Shown: positions 1-17,064, numbered from the stretch's first letter. The stretch: DNA of 45,143 nucleotides from Campylobacterales bacterium (GCA_050251635.1 JBFWML010000014.1:1-45143), one strand, 5' to 3'. Notes: generated from the sequence alone by a model not told the origin. A program made the numbers and translations.

Positions 1-122
1 GTGCAGGTTGCTTTGGTGGTCTAAAACCCCGATCCACCCCTCGTTTAAGATGAGCGCGCACGGATTGACAGCCTCGCTTTGAATCCGGTTGTCAAACTCC
101 ATCCGCCCCCCGTTTTGGTTTG

Positions 123-1325
123 TTAGTGGGCCAGCGACTTAAACCAGCCAGTGGTGTCCAGCTGCTCCCACGGATAGCCCTTGAGGCCGACCTGCCCTTT
201 GGCTGCTACATCGGCGTAAAGGAAGGTGTTTTTAGAGGGCTTGTCCAGATTAAAGGTGCGGGTAATCCACATGGGGGTCAAGGGAAACTGCTTAGCCACC
301 GCGTCGCTGAGCATCTCATCGGTAATACCCGGTGCGGCGGTAAACTGCGTATCGACGCTCACCGAAGTGGGGCGCGCCACACCGATCGCGTAGCTGATCT
401 GAACGAGCGCCTTTTTAGCCAGTCCCGCAGCCACGATGTTTTTGGCGATCCAGCGGGCGGCATAAAGGCCGGAGCGGTCCACCTTGGTGTAGTCCTTAGA
501 AGACTGCGCGCCGCCGCCGATGGGGGCGTAACCGCCGAAGCTGTCCACGATCAGTTTGCGGCCCGTCAGGCCCGAATCGTGCAGCGGGCCGTGGTTAACG
601 TAGCGGCCGGTGGGGTTAATGTGGATAATGCAGTCGTTGGGATTGTAAAGATGGGCGGGCAATCCGGCGGTGTCGATCAGCCCTTTGATTAGCTTGCGCA
701 CTTCGTCGATGTGCAGTTTTTCTACGCTGGGGGCGGAGACAACGATGGTGTGAATCTTCTGGGGTTTGGCCTGAATAAAGTTCTCTTTGGTGCCGTAGTC
801 GATGGTGACTTGGGTTTTAATATCCACACCCAGCTCGTCGGAGTGGGCGAGGGCGTAGGCGTACACCTTGTCGCACAAAAGCCGCGCGTAGCTAATCGCT
901 GCGGGCATATACTCTTCGGCTTCGTCGCTGGCAAAACCGAACATAATGCCCTGATCCCCCGCGCCGATTTCGCCGCCCGCTTGATCAACGCCCTGATTGA
1001 TGTCGGGGGATTGTTTGTTGATATGCACGGCGATATGCAGATCGTCGGGGTGCAGTGTCTGGCAGCGGTCAAAACCGCACTGGCCGCCGTAACCGATTTT
1101 GCTCAAAGCCTCTTTGGCGATGCGTTTGTAATCGGCTTCGGTGATGTTGGCCTTGGTGGTCACTTCGCCGCCGATAAAGAGGTGTTTGCCTGCGATAAAC
1201 ACTTCGGACGCGACGCGGGAGTTGGGGTCCTGCATCAACAAAAAGTCCACAATGCTGTCGGCGACGATGTCCGCGCATTTATCGGGATGGCCGGGGCTGA
1301 CCGCTTCGGAAGTAAACAGATACAT
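123..1325 (-). CDS. metK: S-adenosylmethionine synthetase
   Basis: 400 aa; N-terminal GHPDKCADIVADSIVD, GGEVTTKA and GGGAFSGKD-like motifs typical of MetK. Last gene of the minus-strand operon, 6 nt after luxS. Confidence 0.95.
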   Translation of the reverse strand: MYLFTSEAVSPGHPDKCADIVADSIVDFLLMQDPNSRVASEVFIAGKHLFIGGEVTTKANITEADYKRIAKEALSKIGYGGQCGFDRCQTLHPDDLHIAVHINKQSPDINQGVDQAGGEIGAGDQGIMFGFASDEAEEYMPAAISYARLLCDKVYAYALAHSDELGVDIKTQVTIDYGTKENFIQAKPQKIHTIVVSAPSVEKLHIDEVRKLIKGLIDTAGLPAHLYNPNDCIIHINPTGRYVNHGPLHDSGLTGRKLIVDSFGGYAPIGGGAQSSKDYTKVDRSGLYAARWIAKNIVAAGLAKKALVQISYAIGVARPTSVSVDTQFTAAPGITDEMLSDAVAKQFPLTPMWITRTFNLDKPSKNTFLYADVAAKGQVGLKGYPWEQLDTTGWFKSLAH

Positions 1326-1331
1326 AGACGT

Positions 1332-1847
1332 TTAGCCTTTTTTGCTGAGTTTTTTCATAAGTTTAGGATCAAGGGCAATCTCTTCGTTATTCATCACGCC
1401 GATTCCCTTTTTGAGCACTTTGGTCGCGATTTTCTGCGCGTCTTCGAGGGAGTGCATTTTGTAGGTGCCGCACTGATACTCGTTCAGTTCGGGAATGTCG
1501 CTTTCGCTTTTAACCTTGAGAATATCGTTCATGCTCTTGGCCCACGCCTCGACGATGACCGACTCCTTGGGTTCGCCGATCAGGCTCATGTAAAAGCCGG
1601 TGCGGCAGCCCATGGGGGAGATGTCGATGACCTCGATCCCCTTGAGGTGATCGCGCATAAAACCCGCAAAGAGGTGTTCAAGGGTGTGGATGCCCTTGCC
1701 GCTCATCTTTTTTTTGTTGGGGGTGAAAAAACGCAGATCAAAAACGGTGATCTTGTCCCCCTTGGGGGTGCTCATCGTTTTGGCCTTGCGCACCGCGGGG
1801 CCGCGCATTTTGGTGTGATCGACGCAAAAACTATCCAGTAACGGCAT
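1332..1847 (-). CDS. luxS: S-ribosylhomocysteine lyase (AI-2 / DPD synthase)
   Basis: 171 aa, the canonical LuxS length. Metal-binding HTLEHL motif ([12 protein letters not shown]). Strong SD AAGGAGG 4 nt upstream of the ATG. Confidence 0.9.
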
Positions 1848-1873
1848 GGCGCCTCCTTGTTAAGGTTGAAATT

Positions 1874-2248
1874 CTACTCAGGCTTCTTGAAAGGCTGGCC
1901 CGGTTTCCACTCAATGTAAACGCTGTCTTTTTCTTCGAAGTGGGGGGATTTAACGAAGACCGATTTAAAGGGCTTGTCGGTCACGTTGCGAAAGTAGTGC
2001 GCTTCGCCGGGGCCGCATTGCAGATACTCGCCCGCTTTCAGTACCACCAGCGTGCCGTTGACCCACACTTCGCATTCGCCTTCCAGCGCGTAAAAGGACT
2101 CCTCTTGCTTGACATGGGCGTGGCAGGGGTGCTCTTCGCCGGGCGTGATGATGACGACGCCGAAGTCGATGTTCGGGCCTTTGGCCAGATACTTCGGGCC
2201 GTGATCGCCGAAGCGGTATTCGTGATCGTTCTCGTGGGTTTTATACAC
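1874..2248 (-). CDS. cupin-domain protein (metal-binding HxH...E...H; candidate isomerase/dioxygenase)
   Basis: 124 aa. Cupin motif 1 [19 protein letters not shown] and motif 2 GPGEAHYF. Overlaps the lsrK-like gene by 8 nt. Confidence 0.65.
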
Positions 2249-3791
2249 CGGGGGCTCTCCATAGGGAATTGGTTAAACCCGCTTCGGTCAGTTTCAGTTG
2301 CGCGGCGTAAACAGCCTGCCAGCGCTCTTTAACTTCGCCGTAGAGGGCGTGGTTTTTTGCGTGCGGATCATACCGTTTTTCCCAGCGGATAAGCTGAGCG
2401 GACTCTTCTAAATTTTTCCACACGCCCGCGCCCACTCCGGCGGCAAAGGCGCAGGCCAGCGCGGTCGCCTCTTTCACGACCGGAACTTTCACCTGTTTGC
2501 CCGTCACATCGGCCAGAATCTGACTCCAGAGTTTACCCTTGGAGGCCCCGCCCGCAAAAACGACCTCGCCGCTAGCCGTGCCGGTTAGTTTTTCGACCTT
2601 TTGCAGGTTGATAGCACTCACGATCGCCGCGTTCTCCTGCAAGGCGCGGAACATTTCGGCTTTGCCGCAGCGGGCCGGATCGATGGAGAGGTTAATAAAC
2701 GAGGGCGCGGCGTGAATCCAGCGGCCGTAGTGCATCTCGTCCGAAAAGATCGGCAACACGCCGTTGGCTCCGGCGGGCACACGCTCCGCCATCTCCTCAA
2801 GCAGCGTATAAGGGTCGATCCCCCGCGCCTTGGCCTCGGCCACTTCGTTCTGGCACAGCGCGTCACGAAACCAGCGCATCACAAGGCCCGTAAAAAAGGT
2901 GATCCCTTCGGCCTGACTTTGGCCCGTGATGACATGGGGGTTAATGCGCAAATCCATAGCCGGATCGAGCAATGCGCCTTGGACGTTGACCAGTTGCTGC
3001 CAGAAAGTGCCGCCGAGCACCGCGCTTTGGCCGGGTTTAACCACCCCCAATCCCGCGCTGCCCAGTTGCACGTCGCCGCCGCCCATGACCACAAGTGTTC
3101 CGGCTTTCAGGCCGCACGCTTTGGCCGCCGCTTCGGTGACTTTTCCAATCACGCTTCCCGTTTCGGCCACTTGGGGCAGTAAAGAGCTTTTAATCCCCGC
3201 TTTTTCGGCCAGATCGGGCAGCCATGAGCGGGTTTTTAAAGACAAAAGCCCCGTGGTGCCGCCGTTGGACGGATCGACCGCGATTTCGCCGGAGAGTTTA
3301 AAGAGCGCCCAGTCGCTGATCATCGAGAGTTTATCGGCGGCTTCGTAGAGTTTCGGCTTATGGTTTTTTAGCCACAACAGCCGGGGTAGGGCGGCTAGGG
3401 CAAAGGTTTGACCGCTGGCCTCATACTGCTCTTTTTCCAGGGTCGGAAACTGTTTTTTGAGCGCCACAACCTCCGCGCAGGCGCGACCGTCCACGTTCGC
3501 CACCGCCCACAGCTCCTGACCGTTTTTGTCGTAAACCACAATCCCTTCGCGCATACTCGTCGCGCTGATCGCCAGAATTTTCGACGCATCCACGCTGCTG
3601 ATCGCCCTTTGAATGCAGCGGCATAACAGCGGCCAGTTGGCGGCGCAGTCAAACCCCATCGATCCGGGCACATCCGCTTCGGCAATGTGCATCCACTCCT
3701 CTTGGCCGATCGCAATCTGGTTGCCGTCGGTATCAAACAGTACGGCGCGGCCGCTGCCCGTTCCGGCATCGATGGCGAGTAGGTAATTCAT
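2241..3791 (-). CDS. lsrK: FGGY-family carbohydrate kinase, LsrK-like (autoinducer-2 / DPD kinase)
   Basis: 516 aa. Full-length resemblance to enteric LsrK: [16 protein letters not shown] at the N-terminus, [64 protein letters not shown]-terminal SLWRAPG. ATGA overlap with the upstream aldolase gene. Confidence 0.7.
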
Positions 3792-4948
3792 GCGGTTTTC
3801 CTTAGCTTGGCCTGTTCCAGCTCCCAGTATTCGATCTCAAAAAGCTCTTTTTCCCCCAAGGGTTGCCAGCCGCCCAGTTTTTCGGCCTGCAAAATCGCCC
3901 GGATCGTGTGTTCGGCAATATCGGCGACCGGTTTTAACCCTTTGGCGTCGGGCGAAAGGGCGAAAACGCCTTTGTTTTTGATGACCACCACGCGCGGGGT
4001 GGAGTCAAGCTTGATCTGATCGGTGGCGTGGCGGGCGAAATAGGCGTCGTATTCGCGCCGGTAGGCGGCAAAACTGCTTTCGATCCGGCTTTCGTCGCAC
4101 ACGAGATAAAGCCGTTTGGTGCGCAATACGTGTTCGGGGGTTAAACACCCTTTGGCGATCTTTTCCGCATTCGGCAGGGCGCAGAGGGCCGCCGCTTCGG
4201 GGGTTAACAGCGGTTTGACCGCGAAGTTTTCTCCGGCGGCCAGCCGAACCCGCTCGGCCAGCGAGGAATTTTCCGGCAGGGGTTTAGGCAGCGTTAGCAG
4301 CGCTTTTTCGTTCAGATAGGTTTCGGCCTTGGCGGAAAGCTCGATCATCTTGTCGTAGGCCGTTTTGGCGGAGTCGGCAAAGGTAAACAGGCCGTGGTTT
4401 AAAAGCACCACGCCTTCAAGATCGTTCCAGTCGATCGAGCGTGTGAGGTCACGGATGGTTTTAGCCAGAATAAATCCCGGCATCACATAGGGCACGATTA
4501 GCACCTTGGGGCCGAAAACCGCGCGCAGATGTTTTTCGCCTTCGGGCGCGGCGCTGAGCGCGGCCACCGCGTCGGCGTGGGTGTGGTCAACATAATCGAA
4601 GGGGATTAGCGCGTGCAAAATCGCCTCCACGCTGGGGTTGGGCGCGGACTTATCCAACATAGCCGCCTTTTGCGCCGCGACCATTTCGGTGTCGGTGAGG
4701 GTCTCGCGATCGGCCAGTTCCAACAGCGGAGCCAGTTTCACCGCCGGAAAACCGGGTTTTTCGATGCTGGCCAAATCCCAGCCACTGCCTTTGACATACA
4801 AAATACCGTCCACTTTAACGGAGGTATTGCCCCCGCCGTGAAGCACCAAGTCGGCATCGGCCCCCAACAGGCGGGAGGTGTAAACCCGTAAAGCGACGGG
4901 ATCGTTAGCAAATTGCGCAGCCTCGTGTTCGTTCCAGCGATTGATCAT
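3788..4948 (-). CDS. class II aldolase/adducin-family protein (long RhaD-like aldolase domain, without the fused short-chain dehydrogenase half)
   Basis: 386 aa. N-terminus [45 protein letters not shown] is characteristic of the N-terminal aldolase module of bifunctional rhamnulose-1-phosphate aldolase/alcohol dehydrogenases. Confidence 0.6.
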
Positions 4949-5644
4949 TTAAAGCCTTAATGCGTCGTGCCACTCGACCAGCGTGACGCGGTAACCGGCG
5001 CTCACGGGGTGGACGGTGTGGGCAAAGTAGGGATTGGAAGGGAAAGCAACCATCGTGCCTGCTTTGGGGGTGAGCATGAGCGTTTGGCCGTTTGCGTCTT
5101 TAAGAAAGTCGAAGGTCAGTTTTCCGCCTTCGAAGTCGTCGTTGAGAAACAAAACAGTGGTGATTTTGCGTTGCGTCGCCACCGGTTGCCAGCCGGAAAT
5201 TTCGCCCTTCTCATCCAGCAGAATGCTGCAATTGTCCGCGTGCATCCCGTAAAAGTCGCCGGGGCCGTAGCCTAAAACCTGCAAGCCCGAACCCTCCAGC
5301 AGCAGATGGTTGAAAAACCGTTCAATCTGCGGCTTTTGTTCTAAAAAAGCGGCGCGGTAGATCGCCTGCGAAGTTTCATCCAGACTCAGCCATGCGGTGC
5401 TGCGCAGATTTTTATCGACCCTTGCATGGGGGAGATTGGCCTCTTTAACCTCGGCAGGGACGATCCGGCGCGTTGCGAGCGCATCGGCATAAAGCGCGGC
5501 GCAGGTTTCGGGGGGTAAAAAACCGTCGATCAGCAAAAACGGGTAATCGGCAAAACCGTTGCCCATGAAACTCATCTGGGGCGGCACTTTGCCTTCCAGC
5601 GGCGCGGAGTCATAAAACGCAAGGCGCGAAATGGGGTTTAGCAT
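4949..5644 (-). CDS. 2OG-Fe(II) oxygenase superfamily protein (prolyl-4-hydroxylase-like, P4Hc)
   Basis: 231 aa. HxD...H triad candidates (MHADN ... HTVHPV). P4Hc-like R-x-T-x-L-x-LNDDFEGG-x-L-x-F segment. First gene of the operon, directly abutting the aldolase gene. Confidence 0.55.
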   Translation of the reverse strand: MLNPISRLAFYDSAPLEGKVPPQMSFMGNGFADYPFLLIDGFLPPETCAALYADALATRRIVPAEVKEANLPHARVDKNLRSTAWLSLDETSQAIYRAAFLEQKPQIERFFNHLLLEGSGLQVLGYGPGDFYGMHADNCSILLDEKGEISGWQPVATQRKITTVLFLNDDFEGGKLTFDFLKDANGQTLMLTPKAGTMVAFPSNPYFAHTVHPVSAGYRVTLVEWHDALRL

Positions 5645-5682
5645 ACGCGATTATAGTGCAAGCTTGCCGTGATTTTTCCGCG

Positions 5683-5688
5683 TTATAA
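5683..5688 (+). promoter_or_regulatory. perfect TATAAT -10 hexamer in the 72-bp divergent region, about 28 nt upstream of the binding-protein ATG
   Basis: gcgtTATAATgg. The -35 region is poor (AGCTTG at 17 bp, or TTGCCG at 14 bp). Confidence 0.3.
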
Positions 5689-5716
5689 TGGACGCACTTT
5701 GACAGGGAGGGGTCCC

Positions 5717-6625
5717 ATGAGAGTTATCTGGGTACTGCTGGCGGCGGCCATTGCGCTCTTGGGCGCTGAAGCTAAACGGTTTGTGGTGGGCTTTGCGCAG
5801 GATACGATGACCAACGACTGGCGCGTGGCGCAGGTGCGCGAGCTGGAAGCGGCCTTCAAAAACGACAAAAACATCGAGTTTGTTTACACCGACGGCAAGG
5901 GCAATCTGGCGCTTTCGGTGCAAAATATCGAAGAGCTGATCGCCCGTCCCGTGGATGTGCTGATCGCCAGTCCGCTGGACGCCAAGGCGATGACGCCGGT
6001 GATTGAAAGCGCCTACAAAAAAGGGATTCCCGTGGTGCTGCTTTCGCGCCGGATCGAGGGCGACGGATTTACCACCTTTATTCACCCCGAAAACCGCGAC
6101 ATCGCCAAGCAGGCGGCCCGGTACATCGCCAAAGAGCTGAAGGGCAAGGGCAAGATTTTTATTTTGCAGCACGTACCCACAACCACCCCGGCCATCCACC
6201 GCACCGAAGCGTTTTTTGCCGAGATCAAAAAATATCCCGGCCTTGAAGTGACGGGCATGAAGGTGGCCAACTCCCTGCGGGCCGACGCGATTAAGATGAC
6301 CGAAGAGGCACTGCGCGAAGGGTTGAAGTTTGACGCCGTTTACGCCCAAAGCGACAGCATGGCCGTCGGCGCGATTATGGCACTCAAGGCCGCCGGGGTT
6401 GACCCTAAACCGCTGGTGATTACGGGGATCGACTACATCTCCGAAGCCAGGGCGGCGATTGTGGCCGGGGAGCTGGATGCCAGCTTTACCTATCCGACCG
6501 CCGCAGCCGAGGGGGCCGAAGCGGTGCGCCGGATACTCAAGGGCCAAAAAGTGCCCAAAGAGCAGGTGATCGATTCAACCATGGTCACCCGCGAAAACGT
6601 CCGCAAGATTGAACCGATCTTTTGA
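5717..6625 (+). CDS. periplasmic sugar-binding protein, type I PBP fold (RbsB/LsrB/LuxP/TorT-like)
   Basis: Signal peptide MRVIWVLLAAAIALLGAEA. Start taken at the ATG at 5717, preceded by GGGAGGGG; the track ORF begins at 5669. Typical Peripla_BP segments. Stop overlaps the kinase start (ATGA). Confidence 0.75.
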   Translation: MRVIWVLLAAAIALLGAEAKRFVVGFAQDTMTNDWRVAQVRELEAAFKNDKNIEFVYTDGKGNLALSVQNIEELIARPVDVLIASPLDAKAMTPVIESAYKKGIPVVLLSRRIEGDGFTTFIHPENRDIAKQAARYIAKELKGKGKIFILQHVPTTTPAIHRTEAFFAEIKKYPGLEVTGMKVANSLRADAIKMTEEALREGLKFDAVYAQSDSMAVGAIMALKAAGVDPKPLVITGIDYISEARAAIVAGELDASFTYPTAAAEGAEAVRRILKGQKVPKEQVIDSTMVTRENVRKIEPIF

Positions 6626-8541
6626 TGCGCGCTCGACGGTTAACCCTTAAACAAAAGATGATCCTGCTGCCGCTGACTACGGCGGCGGCGGTGTTGCTGG
6701 CGGTGGGGATTTCGCTTTCGCTGTTTGTGGATCGCTACTACGGCGATATGTCTAAACGCAGCCTCGATCGGGCCGAGGCGAATTTGAATTCGGCTTTTTC
6801 GGCGGCGATGGCGCGGCTTGAGTCCGGCGCGGCGCGGCTGTCGCAGGTTGAGGAGCTGGTTGCAATGGCGGGGTTTATCAGCACCTACCAGCGAACCGAT
6901 GCCTACGAACCGTTGATTTTTGATGTGGAAAAAGAGAAAGTCGCCGATGATCTTGCCCGCCGGTTGACCCTTTCCGGTCACGATCTTGTGGCGATTTACG
7001 ATGCCGAAAACCGTTTGATTGCGGGCGTGCGAAAACGTCTGCGCGACGGCGAGGTGGTGCGCGTCTATGCCACCTACCGCGACCAAAAACCTCTTCTGCT
7101 GGAAAAAACGTCTCAAGGCTGGCAGCCTGCCGGCTTGATTGAGCGCTCGCTCTTTGAATCGCTTCCGCCGACCGCCATGAGCGAACTGGATGCGCAGCGG
7201 GGTTTTTATGTGCAGCGGCTCAAACCGCTGGTGCGGCCTTCGGGCCAGCGGGCGGGCACAATCCGGCTGGCCGATCGCCACGGCGCGCAGACGCTGGCTG
7301 CCATGGTGCGTTCGGAGCTGATTCATACCGGATACCTAACGGCGGGCAACACCATAGCCGGAGATTTTGACGAGGCGCTTTCCCCTGAAATTCGCGGCCA
7401 AATGGCGCTGCGCGAAGGGATGGGCTGGCTTGAAAGCGACGCCCATTTTTTAAAAAGCGTTGCATTGAACGTGGGGCCTGAAGAGTTTTTGCCCGTGGTG
7501 CTGGGGCTGGGAAAAACGATCTATCTCGATCAGCGCAATACGACGCTGTGGATACTCATAGGCGCGCTGGTGCTTTCGGCGCTGCTGGTGGTTCCCTTTG
7601 CGGCAAGGATTGCCAACCGATCGATCGCGCGGCCCGTAGACTGGCTGCTGGAAAAGACCGAAGCCATCAAGGCGGGTCATTATCAAAACCTGGAGCATGA
7701 CGCTTCAAACGATGAGATCGGGCGGCTTTCGCGGGCCTTTGACGCCATGGCCAAAGAGGTTCAGCAACGCGAATGGGAGCTGCAGGAGTACCGCGATCAT
7801 CTCGAACAGAAGGTGCAGGCCGAAATCGCCAAGCGCCAGGAGCAGGAACAGCTGCTGATTCGCCAGTCGAGACTGGCGGCGATGGGTGAAGCGATGAGTT
7901 CCATCGCCCACCATTGGCGTCAACCCCTCAACGCGCTGGCGGCCAATGTTCAGGACCTGCCCGATGCGCAAAAGCACGGCGAGATGACCGTGAACTATCT
8001 CAACCATGTGGTTGATAACTCCATGCGGCTTATCAACGAAATGTCCGGCACGATCGACGCCTTTAAAAACTTCTTTCGCCCCGACGGCAACCGGGTGGCC
8101 TTTTCGGTCAGTCAGGCGGTGCAGCGGACGCTAACGGTGCTTAGCCCCACCTTTACCAACAATCTGGTGACCGTGGAGACCTACTACGAAGACAATCCGC
8201 TGGTGGAGGGGTATCCCAACGAGTTCGCGCAGGTGATTTTACATCTGCTTTCCAACGCGGTTGATGCCATGCTGGAGCGCCAAAGCTCCGTGCGCCGTAT
8301 TTCGCTTTGGGTGGGCAAGGCCGAAAACGGAAAGGCCCGCGTCCAAATCTGCGACAGCGCGGGCGGCATCGATCCGGTGATGCTGGGCAAAATCTTTGAA
8401 CCCTACGTCTCCACCAAGCAAAAAAGCCACGGCAGCGGCGTCGGGCTTTATATGGCCAAGATGATTATCGAATGGAATATGCAAGGCACGATTACGGCAA
8501 GAAACGAAGGGGAGGGCGCCTGCTTTACGATCGAGGTTTAG
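6622..8541 (+). CDS. sensor histidine kinase: TM, about 270-aa periplasmic domain, TM, HAMP, coiled coil, HisKA, HATPase_c; no receiver domain
   Basis: 639 aa. Two hydrophobic segments (LLPLTTAAAVLLAVGISLSLFV; LWILIGALVLSALLVVPFA). H-box SIAHHWRQPLNAL. G-boxes DSAGGIDP and GSGVGLYMAKMIIE. Confidence 0.85.
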   Translation: MMRARRLTLKQKMILLPLTTAAAVLLAVGISLSLFVDRYYGDMSKRSLDRAEANLNSAFSAAMARLESGAARLSQVEELVAMAGFISTYQRTDAYEPLIFDVEKEKVADDLARRLTLSGHDLVAIYDAENRLIAGVRKRLRDGEVVRVYATYRDQKPLLLEKTSQGWQPAGLIERSLFESLPPTAMSELDAQRGFYVQRLKPLVRPSGQRAGTIRLADRHGAQTLAAMVRSELIHTGYLTAGNTIAGDFDEALSPEIRGQMALREGMGWLESDAHFLKSVALNVGPEEFLPVVLGLGKTIYLDQRNTTLWILIGALVLSALLVVPFAARIANRSIARPVDWLLEKTEAIKAGHYQNLEHDASNDEIGRLSRAFDAMAKEVQQREWELQEYRDHLEQKVQAEIAKRQEQEQLLIRQSRLAAMGEAMSSIAHHWRQPLNALAANVQDLPDAQKHGEMTVNYLNHVVDNSMRLINEMSGTIDAFKNFFRPDGNRVAFSVSQAVQRTLTVLSPTFTNNLVTVETYYEDNPLVEGYPNEFAQVILHLLSNAVDAMLERQSSVRRISLWVGKAENGKARVQICDSAGGIDPVMLGKIFEPYVSTKQKSHGSGVGLYMAKMIIEWNMQGTITARNEGEGACFTIEV

Positions 8542-10869: not shown

Positions 10870-11243
10870 GGCTTAAAAACCCGCAAATTGAGTTCCTGTA
10901 GATAGTCGAAGTGTTTGCGGTTGGCGCTGCACAAGGGCAGGTTGTGTTCGATCGCGGTGGCGGCAATAACGGCGTCGCCCGCCCGCAGGCCGTGCGAAAG
11001 TGCAAACTCTTCCACATACACCGCTGCCCGCTGGCCGATGGCCCCGCTAAGCGGCAGGGTGGAGAAGTTCATCTCCTTCAAAAACGACCGCACGGTTTTA
11101 TGCTGGTTTTTGTTCTGCGCCGCCTGCAAAAGCTCCATATAAGTGTAAATGGAAATACAGGGTTCCGCGCAGTCGTCAATAAGTTTTGCCGCTTCACGGT
11201 TGCCGCGCTGAACCCAGATTAAGACATCGGTATCAAACAACAT
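10866..11243 (-). CDS. vapC: type II toxin VapC (PIN-domain ribonuclease)
   Basis: 125 aa. N-terminal MLFDTDVLI with the PIN acidic residues. 11-nt overlap with the upstream antitoxin gene. Confidence 0.8.
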   Translation of the reverse strand: MLFDTDVLIWVQRGNREAAKLIDDCAEPCISIYTYMELLQAAQNKNQHKTVRSFLKEMNFSTLPLSGAIGQRAAVYVEEFALSHGLRAGDAVIAATAIEHNLPLCSANRKHFDYLQELNLRVFKP

Positions 11244-11475
11244 GAACGCGCCCGCTTCGCAGTTTTTCCATCACGCTTTCGACGCTTTCGGCTTCGTCTT
11301 GATACATGCCAAAAAAAGGGTGCTCGGCGGCGCTCTTGCGCGTCTTTTTGGGCGCGGCAGGTTCGATCGAGCCTTTTAGAACGCCGCGATAGAAGATTTC
11401 AACCTTCTCGTTACGGTCAAGCGCACGGATAATCTCTTTGGTTTTATAACGCAGATCGACCACGCTGGCTTCCAC
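11233..11475 (-). CDS. vapB: type II antitoxin, Phd/YefM-like
   Basis: 80 aa. Small, directly upstream of and overlapping vapC. N-terminal segment resembles Phd/YefM antitoxins. Confidence 0.55.
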   Translation of the reverse strand: MEASVVDLRYKTKEIIRALDRNEKVEIFYRGVLKGSIEPAAPKKTRKSAAEHPFFGMYQDEAESVESVMEKLRSGRVHVV

Positions 11476-11702
11476 AATGACTCCTTTGAAATGTCTAGTT
11501 GGGAGTGTAGCATAGATTCAAAAGGCTTTGAGCCTGTGCTAACCGTTGTGGTGCTGAAATAAGCACCATCATCAGTTTTTGAGCTGGATATTTAAGGTTT
11601 GAATGGCAGAATCTATCGATTTTATAGGTTGTTTCGGCGATAAAAGCAGCCTAGCCCTGTTTTTCTCGTTTTTTCCGATTGGCTTAAGGATAGGATTGGC
11701 AG

Positions 11703-12263
11703 ATGAAAATTTTTGTTTTATGCTTGATTGTATTGACGCTGGCCTTCCCTCAGAATAGTGAAAACAAAAAAAGGTTCAATGAGGCCCCCATTAACACTTT
11801 TGTGTTTATTGGCAACGGATTGGTATGCAAAACAAACCTGAGCGGCGATAGTGTTTATGACTGCTATCGGTTTGGAAAATTTCGGATTGGTGATTCATTT
11901 TCAATCATTCAAAACCACTTTGGCAATTCGAGACAAATTATCAATCAAGACGGTGGCATAAATCACCATGTATATCATTTCCCCACAGACGGGAACATTA
12001 GTGCCTATTGGGTTTTTACAGAAAAAGAAGGTTTGATTGATGCCATTCAGCTCACGGGTAATGCTAGGCATCCTAATTTGAATTTTGCCGGTGTTATGCT
12101 GGGCGACAGCGAGGGGCGGGTGCTGGAGTTGCTTGGCCCAAAAAGAAAAGTATCAACTGTCCCCGATGTTAATGCCACACTTTGGGACTATTCTCCTTTC
12201 CAGATATCGCTTGAGTTTATTAATGGGTTTGTTTATTCAATAAGAATATCTAGTTATCAATAG
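11703..12263 (+). CDS. hypothetical secreted protein encoded in an AT-rich islet
   Basis: 186 aa. Signal peptide MKIFVLCLIVLTLAFP. AGGA SD 8 nt upstream. Local GC about 38-40% against about 60% for the window. No recognisable domain. Confidence 0.5.
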   Translation: MKIFVLCLIVLTLAFPQNSENKKRFNEAPINTFVFIGNGLVCKTNLSGDSVYDCYRFGKFRIGDSFSIIQNHFGNSRQIINQDGGINHHVYHFPTDGNISAYWVFTEKEGLIDAIQLTGNARHPNLNFAGVMLGDSEGRVLELLGPKRKVSTVPDVNATLWDYSPFQISLEFINGFVYSIRISSYQ

Positions 12264-14828: not shown

Positions 14829-15749
14829 ATGAAGATTGCCAACAACGTAACCGAGCTGATCGGCAACACGCCGCTGGTGCGGCTAAACCGCGTGGTTCCC
14901 GCCGGTATCCATGTGCTGGGCAAGTGCGAATTTATGAACCCGACCCACTCGGTCAAAGACCGCATCGGTTACAGCATGATCAACGACGCCGTTGCCAAAG
15001 GGCAGATTACGCCGGGCAAAACGGTTATTATCGAACCCACCAGCGGCAACACGGGCATTGCGCTGGCGAGCGTCTGCGCCGGGCTGGGGATTGAGCTGAT
15101 CCTTACGATGCCCAGCTCCATGAGCGTCGAACGCCAGCGGGTGTTGCGGGCCTTGGGCGCCAAGATTGAGCTGACGGCACCGGAACTGGGTATGCGCGGC
15201 GCGGTCGAAAAGGCCGAAGAGCTGCAGCGGGCCAATAAAAACGCCATCATTTTGCAGCAGTTTCAAAACCCCGCCAACCCCGACATTCACCGCAAAACCA
15301 CCGCCGAAGAGATTTGGCGCGATACCGACGGCACGGTCGATATTTTCGTAGCGGCGGTCGGTACGGGCGGCACGTTGACCGGCACGGGTGAGGCGCTCAA
15401 GGCCAAAAACCCGGCCATTGAAATCATTGCCGTCGAACCGGCCGATTCGGCGGTTTTAAGCGGCGGAAACCCCTGCCCGCACAAAATTCAGGGCATCGGC
15501 GCGGGCTTTGTGCCCAAGGTGCTCAACACCAAGCTCTACAAAGAGGTGGTGCAGGTCAGCAACGATGCGGCGATCGAGATGGCCCGCCGCTTGGCCCGGG
15601 AAGAGGGGCTTTTGGTGGGCATCTCCGCCGGGGCCAATGTTCAGGCGGCGATCGAGGTGGCCGCCCGCCCCGAAAACCGGGGCAAAACCGTCGTGACTGT
15701 CCTGTGCGACACGGGCGAACGGTATCTCAGTTCGGGACTTTTTGATTAA
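14829..15749 (+). CDS. cysK: cysteine synthase A (O-acetylserine sulfhydrylase)
   Basis: 306 aa. PLP-lysine motif PTHSVKDR. Glycine-rich [10 protein letters not shown]. Confidence 0.9.
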
Positions 15750-15755
15750 ATTTCT

Positions 15756-15775
15756 GCCCCAAAGGGGCAAGCTTT
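15756..15775 (+). terminator. weak hairpin (GCCCC-aaa-GGGGC) after cysK, followed by AAGCTTT
   Basis: 5-bp GC stem and 3-nt loop. Poor U-tract, so terminator function is uncertain. Confidence 0.25.
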
Positions 15776-15840
15776 AGTGGCCATAGCGGCCCAAGCGTAG
15801 CCGTAGGGGGCTTTGCTCCCTGCGGCGGATAAGGAAAAAA

Positions 15841-17064
15841 ATGAACGGCTTTACGACCAAGGCGCTCCACGCCCCCCGGCCCAAGGCTGACCCCTTCGGC
15901 GCGCTTCGCATGGCCGTGTACGACAACGCGGCCTTCGAGTTTGAAAGCGCCGAGGCGATCGAGGCGACTTTTACGGGCCAAAAACCCGGCCACACCTACA
16001 CCCGCGCCTCCAACCCCACCGTCGAAGAGCTTGAAAACAAAGTCAAACTCCTCAGCGGCGCGCACGGCGTAATCGCCACCGCCAGCGGCATGGCGGCGAT
16101 CACCACGGCGATCTTCGCGCTGGTGCGAAGCGGCGAAAATATCGTTACCACCGATCGGCTTTTTGGACACACCCTGTCGTTTTTCAAAAAAACCGCCAAA
16201 AATCTGGGGATCGAAACCCGTTTTGTGGATGTGCTCGATCCGGCGGCGGTCGCCAAGGCGTGCGACGCAAAAACCCGCGTCATTTTCTTTGAAACCATTA
16301 GCAATCCGCAGCTTCAGGTGGCCGACGCGGCGGCTCTAAGTGCCGTGGCCCGCGAAAAAAACGCGGTACTCATGGCCGACACCACCATGACGCCGATCTA
16401 CCTGTTCGACGCCAAAAAACACGGGGTGGACGTGGAGGTGATTTCGGCCACCAAATACATCTCCGGCGGCGGCACGACGATCGGCGGGCTTATCCTTGAC
16501 CACGGCCTGTTTGATTGGGGCAAGCTGGACGCATTGCGCCCCCATTTTGAAAAGGCCGGGCAAAACGCGCTGATCGCAAAACTCAAAAAAGAGGTGTACC
16601 GCAACCTCGGCCCCGCGCTCAGTCCGCACAACGCCTATTTGCAAAGTCTGGGGCTGGAAACGATGGCGCTAAGAATCGAACGAAGCTGCCAAAACGCGCT
16701 GGAGCTGGCCAAGTGGCTGGGCGAGCAACCGCAGGTAAAAACGGTGAACTACCCCGGCTTGGAAAGTTCGCCCTTTTGCGCGGCGGCCAAAAAACAGTTC
16801 CGCCACGCCGGAGCGATTCTAACCTTTGATCTGGCAAGCAAAGAGGCGATCTACCGCTTTATGAACGCCCTAAAACTGGTGCGCCGCGCCACAAACATCA
16901 ACGACAACAAAAGCCTGATCATCGCGCCCTACCACACGATCTACGCCGAAAACAGCCCCGAAGAGCGCCTCGCGTTTGACGTGCGGCCCACAATGCTGCG
17001 CCTATCGGTGGGGATTGAGGATATTGAGGATTTAAAAGCGGATATTTCGCAAGCCTTGGCATGA
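15841..17064 (+). CDS. metY: O-acetylhomoserine aminocarboxypropyltransferase / sulfhydrylase (Cys/Met-metabolism PLP enzyme)
   Basis: 407 aa. Cys_Met_Meta_PP family layout. PLP-lysine region VEVISATKYISGGG. Confidence 0.8.
   Translation: MNGFTTKALHAPRPKADPFGALRMAVYDNAAFEFESAEAIEATFTGQKPGHTYTRASNPTVEELENKVKLLSGAHGVIATASGMAAITTAIFALVRSGENIVTTDRLFGHTLSFFKKTAKNLGIETRFVDVLDPAAVAKACDAKTRVIFFETISNPQLQVADAAALSAVAREKNAVLMADTTMTPIYLFDAKKHGVDVEVISATKYISGGGTTIGGLILDHGLFDWGKLDALRPHFEKAGQNALIAKLKKEVYRNLGPALSPHNAYLQSLGLETMALRIERSCQNALELAKWLGEQPQVKTVNYPGLESSPFCAAAKKQFRHAGAILTFDLASKEAIYRFMNALKLVRRATNINDNKSLIIAPYHTIYAENSPEERLAFDVRPTMLRLSVGIEDIEDLKADISQALA

Follow-up and report, generated by a model that had tools for sequence, protein, structure and literature searches.

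The window analyzed here, a 45,143-nucleotide stretch of a metagenome-assembled genome (MAG) of a Campylobacterales bacterium (GCA_050251635.1, JBFWML010000014.1:1-45143), carries a block of six minus-strand genes in which a kinase of the autoinducer-2 (AI-2) type, a long class II aldolase and a cupin are joined to luxS and metK (Table 1). The genes run in the order oxygenase, aldolase, FGGY kinase, cupin, luxS and metK, and the open reading frame (ORF) coordinates, gap sizes and overlaps were found to agree to the base with those of an earlier note made from the sequence alone. The oxygenase and aldolase genes abut with 0 nt between them (TAAATG), the aldolase and kinase genes overlap by 4 nt (ATGA), the kinase and cupin genes overlap by 8 nt (GTGTATAA), and gaps of 26 and 6 nt separate cupin from luxS and luxS from metK, respectively. 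Shine-Dalgarno-like motifs were detected ahead of the starts at the operon junctions, including a strong AAGGAGG before luxS. A hairpin scan of 9 kb returned 11 terminator-like hairpins compared with 12.9 ± 3.3 in shuffled sequences; all 11 were weak stems of 5 to 7 bp within coding sequence and none lay in an intergenic gap, in keeping with the terminator-free reading of the earlier note. These features are consistent with the six genes forming one translationally coupled transcription unit, of which the WD40-repeat gene that follows metK is probably the seventh member. At the other end of the block, the oxygenase ATG is preceded at a distance of 5 nt by a perfect minus-strand TATAAT (5645-5660), with no Shine-Dalgarno motif at this site, which suggests that the oxygenase transcript is leaderless or that the true start lies downstream at Met24 or Met27. 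No sigma-70 pair was reported by a consensus scan of the divergent region. Control of the operon by a riboswitch or other RNA element was also considered and rejected, as no Rfam family reached its gathering score anywhere in the window.

Table 1. Features of the luxS-metK region (positions counted from the first letter of the window)
Feature	Coordinates	Strand	Basis or remark
WD40-repeat protein gene, 5′ end	1-102	-	ATG at 102, 20 nt past metK stop
metK, methionine adenosyltransferase (SAM synthetase)	123-1325	-	NCBIfam equivalog and Pfam
luxS, S-ribosylhomocysteine lyase	1332-1847	-	NCBIfam equivalog
Cupin, single-domain, 124 aa	1874-2248	-	Pfam Cupin_2
lsrK orthologue, predicted autoinducer-2 (DPD) kinase, FGGY family	2241-3791	-	NCBIfam equivalog and E. 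coli LsrK match
Long SDR-less class II (metal-dependent) aldolase	3788-4948	-	Pfam Aldolase_II
2OG-Fe(II) oxygenase, prolyl-hydroxylase-like, first gene of the operon	4949-5644	-	Pfam 2OG-FeII_Oxy_3
Divergent intergenic region, 72 nt, presumably holding both promoters	5645-5716	.	Read from sequence
Periplasmic sugar-binding protein (Peripla_BP_4)	5717-6625	+	Pfam, 158 bits
Membrane histidine kinase with ~265-aa periplasmic domain, HAMP and HATPase_c	6622-8541	+	Pfam and coordinates

The identity of the kinase was examined by NCBIfam profile search and by comparison with proteins of defined structure. The kinase scored 854.8 bits on the autoinducer-2 kinase equivalog NF008187 (cutoff 528), against 189, 146 and 69 bits on the FGGY models for XylB, FucK and RhaB; grouping with the xylulo-, fuculo- or rhamnulokinases, set beforehand as the outcome that would speak against the proposal, was thus not what we found. 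Alignment with E. coli LsrK (5ya0) gave 686 bits and paired residues 3-516 of the kinase with 23-540 of the E. coli enzyme, so that the likeness spans the whole length and takes in the C-terminal SLWRAPG tail, as had been read earlier; the next PDB match was a glycerol kinase at 131 bits. With about 60% identity from end to end to the biochemically defined E. coli protein, the kinase is on sequence grounds a true LsrK orthologue, and its predicted activity is the ATP-dependent phosphorylation of 4,5-dihydroxy-2,3-pentanedione (DPD) at C5.

The family assignments proposed for the other products were likewise upheld, with Cupin_2, FGGY_N/C, Aldolase_II and 2OG-FeII_Oxy_3 all above their Pfam cutoffs and the equivalog models for MetK (TIGR01034, 359 bits, cutoff 309; three S-AdoMet_synt Pfam domains) and LuxS (NF002602, 294 bits, cutoff 197; HTLEH motif and conserved Cys in the translation) passed. 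The aldolase has the Pfam Aldolase_II domain and the class II fold and scored below every family cutoff among the NCBIfam models, the best being 399 bits (cutoff 831) on the PRK08324-type models for fusions of an aldolase to a short-chain dehydrogenase/reductase (SDR); only profile positions 1-401 of 657 were covered and no SDR domain was present. Its best-named relatives are rhamnulose-1-phosphate aldolase fusions. Across 41 sequences the residues H37, N41, T42, S43, E108, H122, H124 and H185 are invariant, the phosphate-binding GGN(T/S)S motif taking the form H37-G-G-G-N41-T-S43, and a C-terminal extension of about 170 residues also includes many invariant positions. We take these residues, from the motif as opposed to structural superposition, to have the roles of those in FucA-type enzymes (three metal-binding His, a catalytic Glu and a phosphate motif). 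The cupin (Cupin_2, 63.8 bits) belongs to a tight family of 64-85% identity in which H43, H45, E49, E50 and H84 are invariant and form the HxH...E...H metal site of the 3-His-1-Glu type; R12, K19 and Y20, also invariant, would suit an anionic ligand. In an AlphaFold2 model of the cupin (mean predicted local distance difference test score, pLDDT, 95.9), the nearest folds were small monocupins, including archaeal phosphomannose isomerases.

The canonical route for AI-2 disposal has been defined chemically: LsrK makes phospho-DPD (P-DPD), LsrG isomerizes it, and LsrF transfers the acetyl group to CoA, leaving dihydroxyacetone phosphate (DHAP) (PMC8016206). Enterobacterial LsrA, LsrB, LsrC, LsrR, LsrF and LsrG as well as ABM (LsrG-like) proteins were used as tblastn queries, and none had a match in the 45 kb at E ≤ 1e-3; MtnA likewise had no match in the window, with MtnK and MtnP not searched separately. 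Thus, the absence of LsrF, LsrG, LsrB, LsrACD and LsrR noticed at first reading holds for the window at large, and a hidden LsrG/ABM protein, LsrF, LsrR, importer or MtnA elsewhere in it was not found. A genomic survey similarly reported no lsrB in epsilon-proteobacteria (PMC2561040). The description of the route as lsr-independent is, therefore, only partly apt: LsrF, LsrG, the importer and LsrR are missing from the window, yet the operon uses LsrK, and most relatives have an LsrG-like ABM protein in addition.

To place the operon among its relatives, one genome per GTDB species was scanned with the kinase as query, and the best 80 LsrK loci (58-63% identity) were inspected for neighbors within 6 kb; loci flanked by 3 kb or more on both sides were counted as well flanked. 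Sixteen of the 80 were canonical lsr loci (Yersinia, Serratia, Sodalis and others), and the remaining 64 were non-canonical, mostly from Sulfurimonadaceae, Sulfurovum, Sulfurospirillum and Arcobacter and also from Motiliproteus, Shewanella and Algicola. Among these 64 loci the long aldolase was present in 35, an ABM protein in 32, a cupin in 19 (in each following LsrK), and luxS and metK in 7 each, with LsrF, LsrB, LsrACD and LsrR found in none. An ABM protein and/or a cupin accompanied the aldolase in 18 of 19 well-flanked aldolase loci. The ABM protein of the relatives (95 aa) matched a single NCBIfam model, LsrG, at 31.6 bits (E 1.8e-7, below the cutoff of 135) and is 42% identical to LsrG over the core. 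As both proteins are present in 6 of the 35 aldolase loci, the idea that cupin and ABM are strictly alternative isomerases was set aside. In two Sulfurospirillum loci, toxin-antitoxin-like and other small genes split the aldolase from LsrK (L045 7474-9898 and L071 9404-9902).

The closer relatives allowed the operon to be divided into parts. In one locus (L082, with 84% identity in the aldolase), all six genes recur along with the binding protein. A second group (L083-85; metK 80% and aldolase 55% identical) reads argB-aldolase-LsrK-cupin-luxS-metK-WD40, with neither the oxygenase nor the sensor pair, while a third (L086/87; metK 82% identical) reads argB-cutA-(kinase, binding protein)-oxygenase-luxS-metK-WD40 and has no aldolase, LsrK or cupin; L088, reading argB-cutA-oxygenase-luxS-metK, lacks these three genes as well. 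Because these arrangements differ in just those parts, aldolase-LsrK-cupin is best described, from gene order, as a conserved and movable three-gene cassette that is here inserted immediately 5′ of luxS, separate from the luxS-metK backbone to which the oxygenase and sensor genes belong. The block is thus conserved in relatives, all six genes in one and aldolase-LsrK-cupin-luxS-metK in three others. Nor is it peculiar to this genome: the cassette, of three or four genes, is widespread, and its linkage to luxS or metK varies (8 of the 19 well-flanked aldolase loci). Divergence between L083 and the window is uneven, with 82%, 75% and 80% identity for cupin, luxS and metK compared with 64% for LsrK and 55% for the aldolase, which hints at replacement or faster evolution of the LsrK and aldolase genes.

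The variable linkage raises the question of whether the cassette processes P-DPD while its placement beside luxS-metK and the oxygenase reflects plain synteny, with no functional or transcriptional coupling. The many neighborhoods in which the cassette occurs, the proximity of luxS or metK in only 8 of 19 loci, the demonstrable independence of the oxygenase and sensor pair from the cassette, and a 166-nt gap between luxS and metK in L083 are all compatible with this explanation. Counter to it, (i) 8 of 19 is far above the <1% expected per gene in a genome of about 2 Mb; (ii) two lineages that have diverged to 55% identity in the aldolase and 64% in LsrK both carry the cassette immediately 5′ of luxS; (iii) the cassette is divergent from luxS in Sulfurimonadaceae; and (iv) the gaps of 26 and 6 nt in the window hold no terminator. 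We regard mere synteny as very unlikely.

The oxygenase that opens the operon had been counted as part of the DPD module, and here the comparison led to a different view. It is a prolyl-hydroxylase-like member of the 2OG-Fe(II) oxygenases (2OG-FeII_Oxy_3, PF13640, 56 bits; best PDB match a prolyl 3-hydroxylase at 35 bits), and the HxD...H triad and Arg, namely H135, D137, H209 and R219, are invariant in 16 homologues. It stands directly 5′ of luxS-metK in the cassette-less L086/L087 and L088 and was found in none of the 64 other non-canonical LsrK loci; as it travels with luxS-metK and is missing from other LsrK loci, its candidacy as a pathway enzyme was rejected. The sensor pair behaves in the same manner. 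The binding-protein ORF opens at GTG 5669, its likely start being ATG 5717 followed by a signal peptide, and the histidine-kinase gene overlaps it by 4 nt. The same pair adjoins oxygenase-luxS-metK in L086/L087 and is missing from the cassette-bearing L083-85. By its distribution, then, the oxygenase together with the sensor pair belongs to the luxS-metK backbone and not to the cassette. The WD40 gene, which runs off the window, is complete in a longer Logan copy (L001, 8844-10973), where it encodes a 709-aa WD40/beta-propeller protein, and it also follows metK in L082, L083 and L086. Such a protein is an unusual partner for luxS-metK.

The sensor pair bears on a further explanation, in which the cassette handles exogenous AI-2 taken up for sensing or quorum quenching and the pair, in the manner of LuxP/LuxQ, senses AI-2 and so controls the operon. 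Canonical LsrK does work on imported AI-2 (PMC8016206), some homologues of the aldolase lie in importer operons (described below), and the overlapping sensor genes face the operon across the 72-nt divergent region and encode a binding protein of the ribose/furanose-binding class. In the PDB this protein was matched best by 2x7x, a sensor domain (142 bits), and by ribose-binding proteins. However, neither LsrB nor LuxP was among the 60 best PDB matches listed and tblastn revealed no similarity to enterobacterial LsrB, leaving the binding protein unsupported as an LsrB/LuxP homologue. No importer was present in the window or, at a distance of 6 kb or less from LsrK, in any of the 64 non-canonical loci, no response regulator adjoins the pair, and, as noted, the pair and the cassette occur apart from one another. 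Compared with LuxP/LuxQ and TorT/TorS, the window pair is alike in that a binding-protein gene is coupled to one for a kinase whose periplasmic domain is large, here beside luxS, and differs in its lack of detectable LuxP/LsrB kinship, in a kinase that is not a hybrid, in the absence of an adjacent regulator and in its occurrence independently of the LsrK cassette. On balance, handling of imported AI-2 appears unlikely. With luxS in the operon and no importer present, endogenous DPD is instead the most likely substrate.

A second scan, of metagenomes with the aldolase as query, asked in what company this enzyme is found. In L106 and L108, lsrR adjoins lsrA-lsrC-lsrD-lsrB, with an LsrB 74% identical to the enterobacterial protein, and lsrB is followed by a stand-alone 416-aa aldolase (45% identical) in the slot of lsrF/lsrG; nothing lsr-like comes after the aldolase in either locus. 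The L106 operon spans 179-7251, and a further 4.6 kb of the contig extends leftward from lsrR, a possible site for lsrK. The same lsrB-aldolase junction was detected in L105 and L121, and the scan also returned luxS/aldolase-ABM/LsrK and cupin-aldolase-LsrK loci. These lsr-gene contexts, independent of the window, bear out the aldolase family's link to AI-2 genes. Within this sample, the presence of the SDR half sorted with context: SDR-less aldolases adjoin LsrK or LsrB in 10 of 11 cases, the full-length bifunctional ones in 0 of 18. In unrooted neighbor-joining (NJ) distance trees, which are to be read cautiously, the lsrB-linked aldolases formed a lineage apart from the LsrK-linked clades, while the gammaproteobacterial cassette aldolases fell at the base of the bifunctional clade in one tree and among the LsrK-linked clades in another. 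The cassette aldolases of L007, L017, L048 and L064 (Motiliproteus, Shewanella) end in a degenerate, truncated SDR-like Rossmann tail of about 170 aa and may stand midway in evolution between the bifunctional form and the stand-alone one. Other contexts were recorded in a planctomycete, in which an ABM-aldolase pair has no LsrK nearby, and in Fulvivirga, in which the neighborhood of a bifunctional relative includes neither rhamnose nor lsr genes.

Bifunctional relatives were also found beside MtnA (400 bits, cutoff 279) in seven metagenome loci (L100, L104, L115, L116, L118, L122 and L123), as in the DHAP shunt. Because aldolase/SDR genes adjoin MtnA, the vaguely annotated "RhaD-like" aldolase/SDR family appears to include enzymes of the DHAP shunt, and the tie to this shunt for S-adenosylmethionine (SAM) by-products that the earlier note had drawn gains support. 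In the DHAP shunt, 5′-methylthioadenosine (MTA) as well as 5′-deoxyadenosine is handled and 5-deoxypentulose-1-phosphates are cleaved (PMC12632272). The cassette might be a variant of this shunt that acts on 5-deoxypentoses from these two by-products and not on DPD, with the cupin converting 5-deoxyribose to 5-deoxyribulose, the kinase forming the 1-phosphate and the aldolase releasing DHAP and acetaldehyde, in parallel to RhaA/RhaB/RhaD and FucI/FucK/FucA. Besides the MtnA neighbors, this alternative can draw on the naming of the aldolase's relatives as rhamnulose-1-phosphate aldolase fusions, on the sugar and sugar-phosphate isomerases among the structural neighbors of the cupin, on the metK linkage, with which it is also compatible, and on one locus of Sulfurovum sp. 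UBA1140 (L021 6182-9689), in which MtnA and a short 206-aa class II aldolase/MtnB-like gene diverge from the long aldolase-LsrK pair; the latter genes together resemble a small island for the salvage of SAM by-products. The kinase, however, is far above the LsrK equivalog cutoff and close to E. coli LsrK, with RhaB and FucK models far behind; homologues of the aldolase are found in operons with the AI-2 importer lsrACDB and lsrR; the partner is usually an ABM protein of LsrG-like type; luxS, the source of DPD, is the neighbor that recurs; and the missing SDR half makes more sense if the reaction yields no aldehyde. A 5-deoxypentose route therefore seems quite unlikely.

Taken together, we consider it probable, on the evidence of sequence and gene context, that the operon serves to salvage, in the cytoplasm, the DPD made by LuxS: LsrK and then the aldolase and cupin would take it to DHAP and a two-carbon (C2) unit. 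In this pathway, LuxS would split S-ribosylhomocysteine into homocysteine and DPD, and LsrK would phosphorylate DPD at C5 and so trap it in the cell. Read from its phosphate end, phosphorylated 3-hydroxypentane-2,4-dione (P-HPD), the isomer of P-DPD, would be a 1-phospho-2-keto-3-hydroxy compound with a 4-keto group and, by analogy, the 4-oxidized counterpart of the 5-deoxypentulose-1-phosphates. We infer that the enediolate stabilized by class II aldolases is also the intermediate of P-DPD/P-HPD isomerization. Because of this likeness and the common enediolate, the aldolase, with the cupin and/or ABM protein, is predicted to convert P-DPD to DHAP and acetate. The metal cupin (in most relatives the ABM protein, or both) and the class II aldolase would act on the metal-bound enediolate common to P-DPD and P-HPD, and the aldolase would free DHAP and the C2 unit, most likely acetate, water attacking the acetyl carbonyl. 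The enzyme would thereby take over the role of the thiolase LsrF while lacking its class I fold, and is our candidate for an LsrF analogue that cleaves P-DPD/P-HPD; the cupin is a candidate P-DPD isomerase or accessory enzyme of the cassette. How isomerization and cleavage are divided between the two is likewise put forward only as a proposal. The SDR half would be dispensable in the lsr-linked aldolases because no aldehyde would form, the SDR being the part that handles the aldehyde in the DHAP-shunt members. With metK included, the operon would complete the activated methyl cycle, and three of the ribose's five carbons would be regained in the form of DHAP; such a route would be useful to chemolithoautotrophs and would also set the leakage of AI-2.

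Several observations weigh against this salvage pathway. To our knowledge, hydrolytic retro-Claisen cleavage by a class II aldolase has no direct precedent, and the fold search did not separate isomerase from dioxygenase for the cupin. In three metagenome loci a bifunctional aldolase/SDR stands directly before an LsrF orthologue (484 bits, cutoff 297), which suggests that the two enzymes can be complementary and not interchangeable; in L110 (4652-7732; also L126 and L127) the aldolase/SDR is a 704-aa protein immediately 5′ of LsrF, the 3-hydroxy-5-phosphonooxypentane-2,4-dione thiolase. One possibility for the L110-type enzyme is that its SDR makes P-HPD for thiolysis by oxidizing a 5-deoxypentulose-1-phosphate. 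The luxS/metK adjacency is found in under half of the aldolase loci, no partner gene was nearby in 6 of 31 well-flanked non-canonical LsrK loci, and the locus counts are not phylogenetically independent. Furthermore, 45 kb of the MAG are visible here, and LsrF, LsrG or an importer could be encoded elsewhere in the genome.

The salvage pathway can be set against the systems it resembles. With the Lsr system of E. coli and Salmonella (lsrACDBFG, lsrRK) it shares an orthologous LsrK, the LsrG-like ABM protein of most relatives, DHAP as predicted end product, and aldolase homologues that fill the lsrF/lsrG slot in some lsrRACDB operons; in place of LsrB/LsrACD, LsrR, LsrF and LsrG, the window has a class II aldolase and cupin, co-operonic with luxS and metK, and endogenous DPD as the likely substrate. 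With the DHAP shunt (MtnP/MtnK, MtnA, Ald2; DrdK/DrdI/DrdA) it would share the phosphorylation of a SAM-derived 5-deoxypentose skeleton, cleavage by a class II aldolase to DHAP and a C2 compound, and, through bifunctional relatives, the MtnA adjacency. It differs in that the kinase is the FGGY-type LsrK and not of MtnK type, no MtnA is in the window, the by-product would be S-ribosylhomocysteine-derived DPD in place of MTA or 5′-deoxyadenosine, and the predicted C2 product is an acid, not an aldehyde. Over their ~400 N-terminal residues, RhaD-ADH and YuxG/RhaEW (PRK08324) share about 50% identity with the aldolase itself, the conserved ~170-residue extension past the aldolase fold included, but the window protein has no SDR half, of which the gammaproteobacterial cassette members keep the degenerate remnant, and has no rhamnose genes nearby. 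FucK/FucA and RhaB/RhaD likewise pair an FGGY kinase and a class II aldolase with an isomerase-like partner, whereas LsrK is not of the ketose-1-kinase type and targets a terminal CH2OH next to CHOH. No earlier description of the arrangement was found in the literature searched on LsrK with a class II aldolase, LsrG or cupin, in line with the earlier note, nor in that on LsrK in Epsilonproteobacteria, Arcobacter, Sulfurimonas and Shewanella or in a 2026 review of AI-2; judged by its gene content, it is an apparently undescribed variant of the Lsr processing pathway.

The rest of the window is largely housekeeping in character, with cutA, argB, mnmA, thiF-like, cysK-like, metY-like, flagellar rod, leuB and other genes. 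On the plus strand at 14829-17064, some 10 kb away from luxS-metK, a gene for a cysK-like pyridoxal phosphate enzyme is found with one of the O-acetylhomoserine sulfhydrylase-like type (Cys_Met_Meta_PP), so that sulfur amino-acid genes are loosely clustered here. The stretch 11001-12263 has a GC content of 0.455 compared with about 0.57 elsewhere and includes an ORF (11703-12263) without a Pfam match; it may be foreign DNA.

Beyond the window, we tentatively put forward a broader proposal, to which we give somewhat less than even odds. SDR-less long class II aldolases may be hitherto unrecognized, CoA-independent terminal enzymes of AI-2 processing. With LsrK and a cupin or ABM isomerase they would add a third branch to the salvage of SAM by-products, leading from S-ribosylhomocysteine through DPD and P-DPD to DHAP and acetate. 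Such a branch would occur widely in Campylobacterota and marine Gammaproteobacteria, its aldolase would have been recruited into lsr clusters at least twice, and luxS-positive bacteria that have no AI-2 receptor would use it to consume their own DPD and so control AI-2 release. Whether LuxS and AI-2 act as signal or metabolic by-product in the many luxS-positive bacteria with no known receptor has been debated for two decades (PMC2561040, for example), and the operon offers a concrete, testable pathway for this question in the environmentally dominant sulfur-oxidizing Campylobacterota. If correct, the salvage pathway proposed for the operon would (i) add a non-homologous replacement of LsrF, and perhaps of LsrG, to AI-2 biochemistry; (ii) provide a mechanistic connection between AI-2 turnover and the DHAP shunt that serves other SAM by-products; (iii) explain why one branch of the large, poorly characterized aldolase/SDR family has lost its dehydrogenase half; and (iv) provide candidate AI-2-degrading enzymes for quorum quenching.

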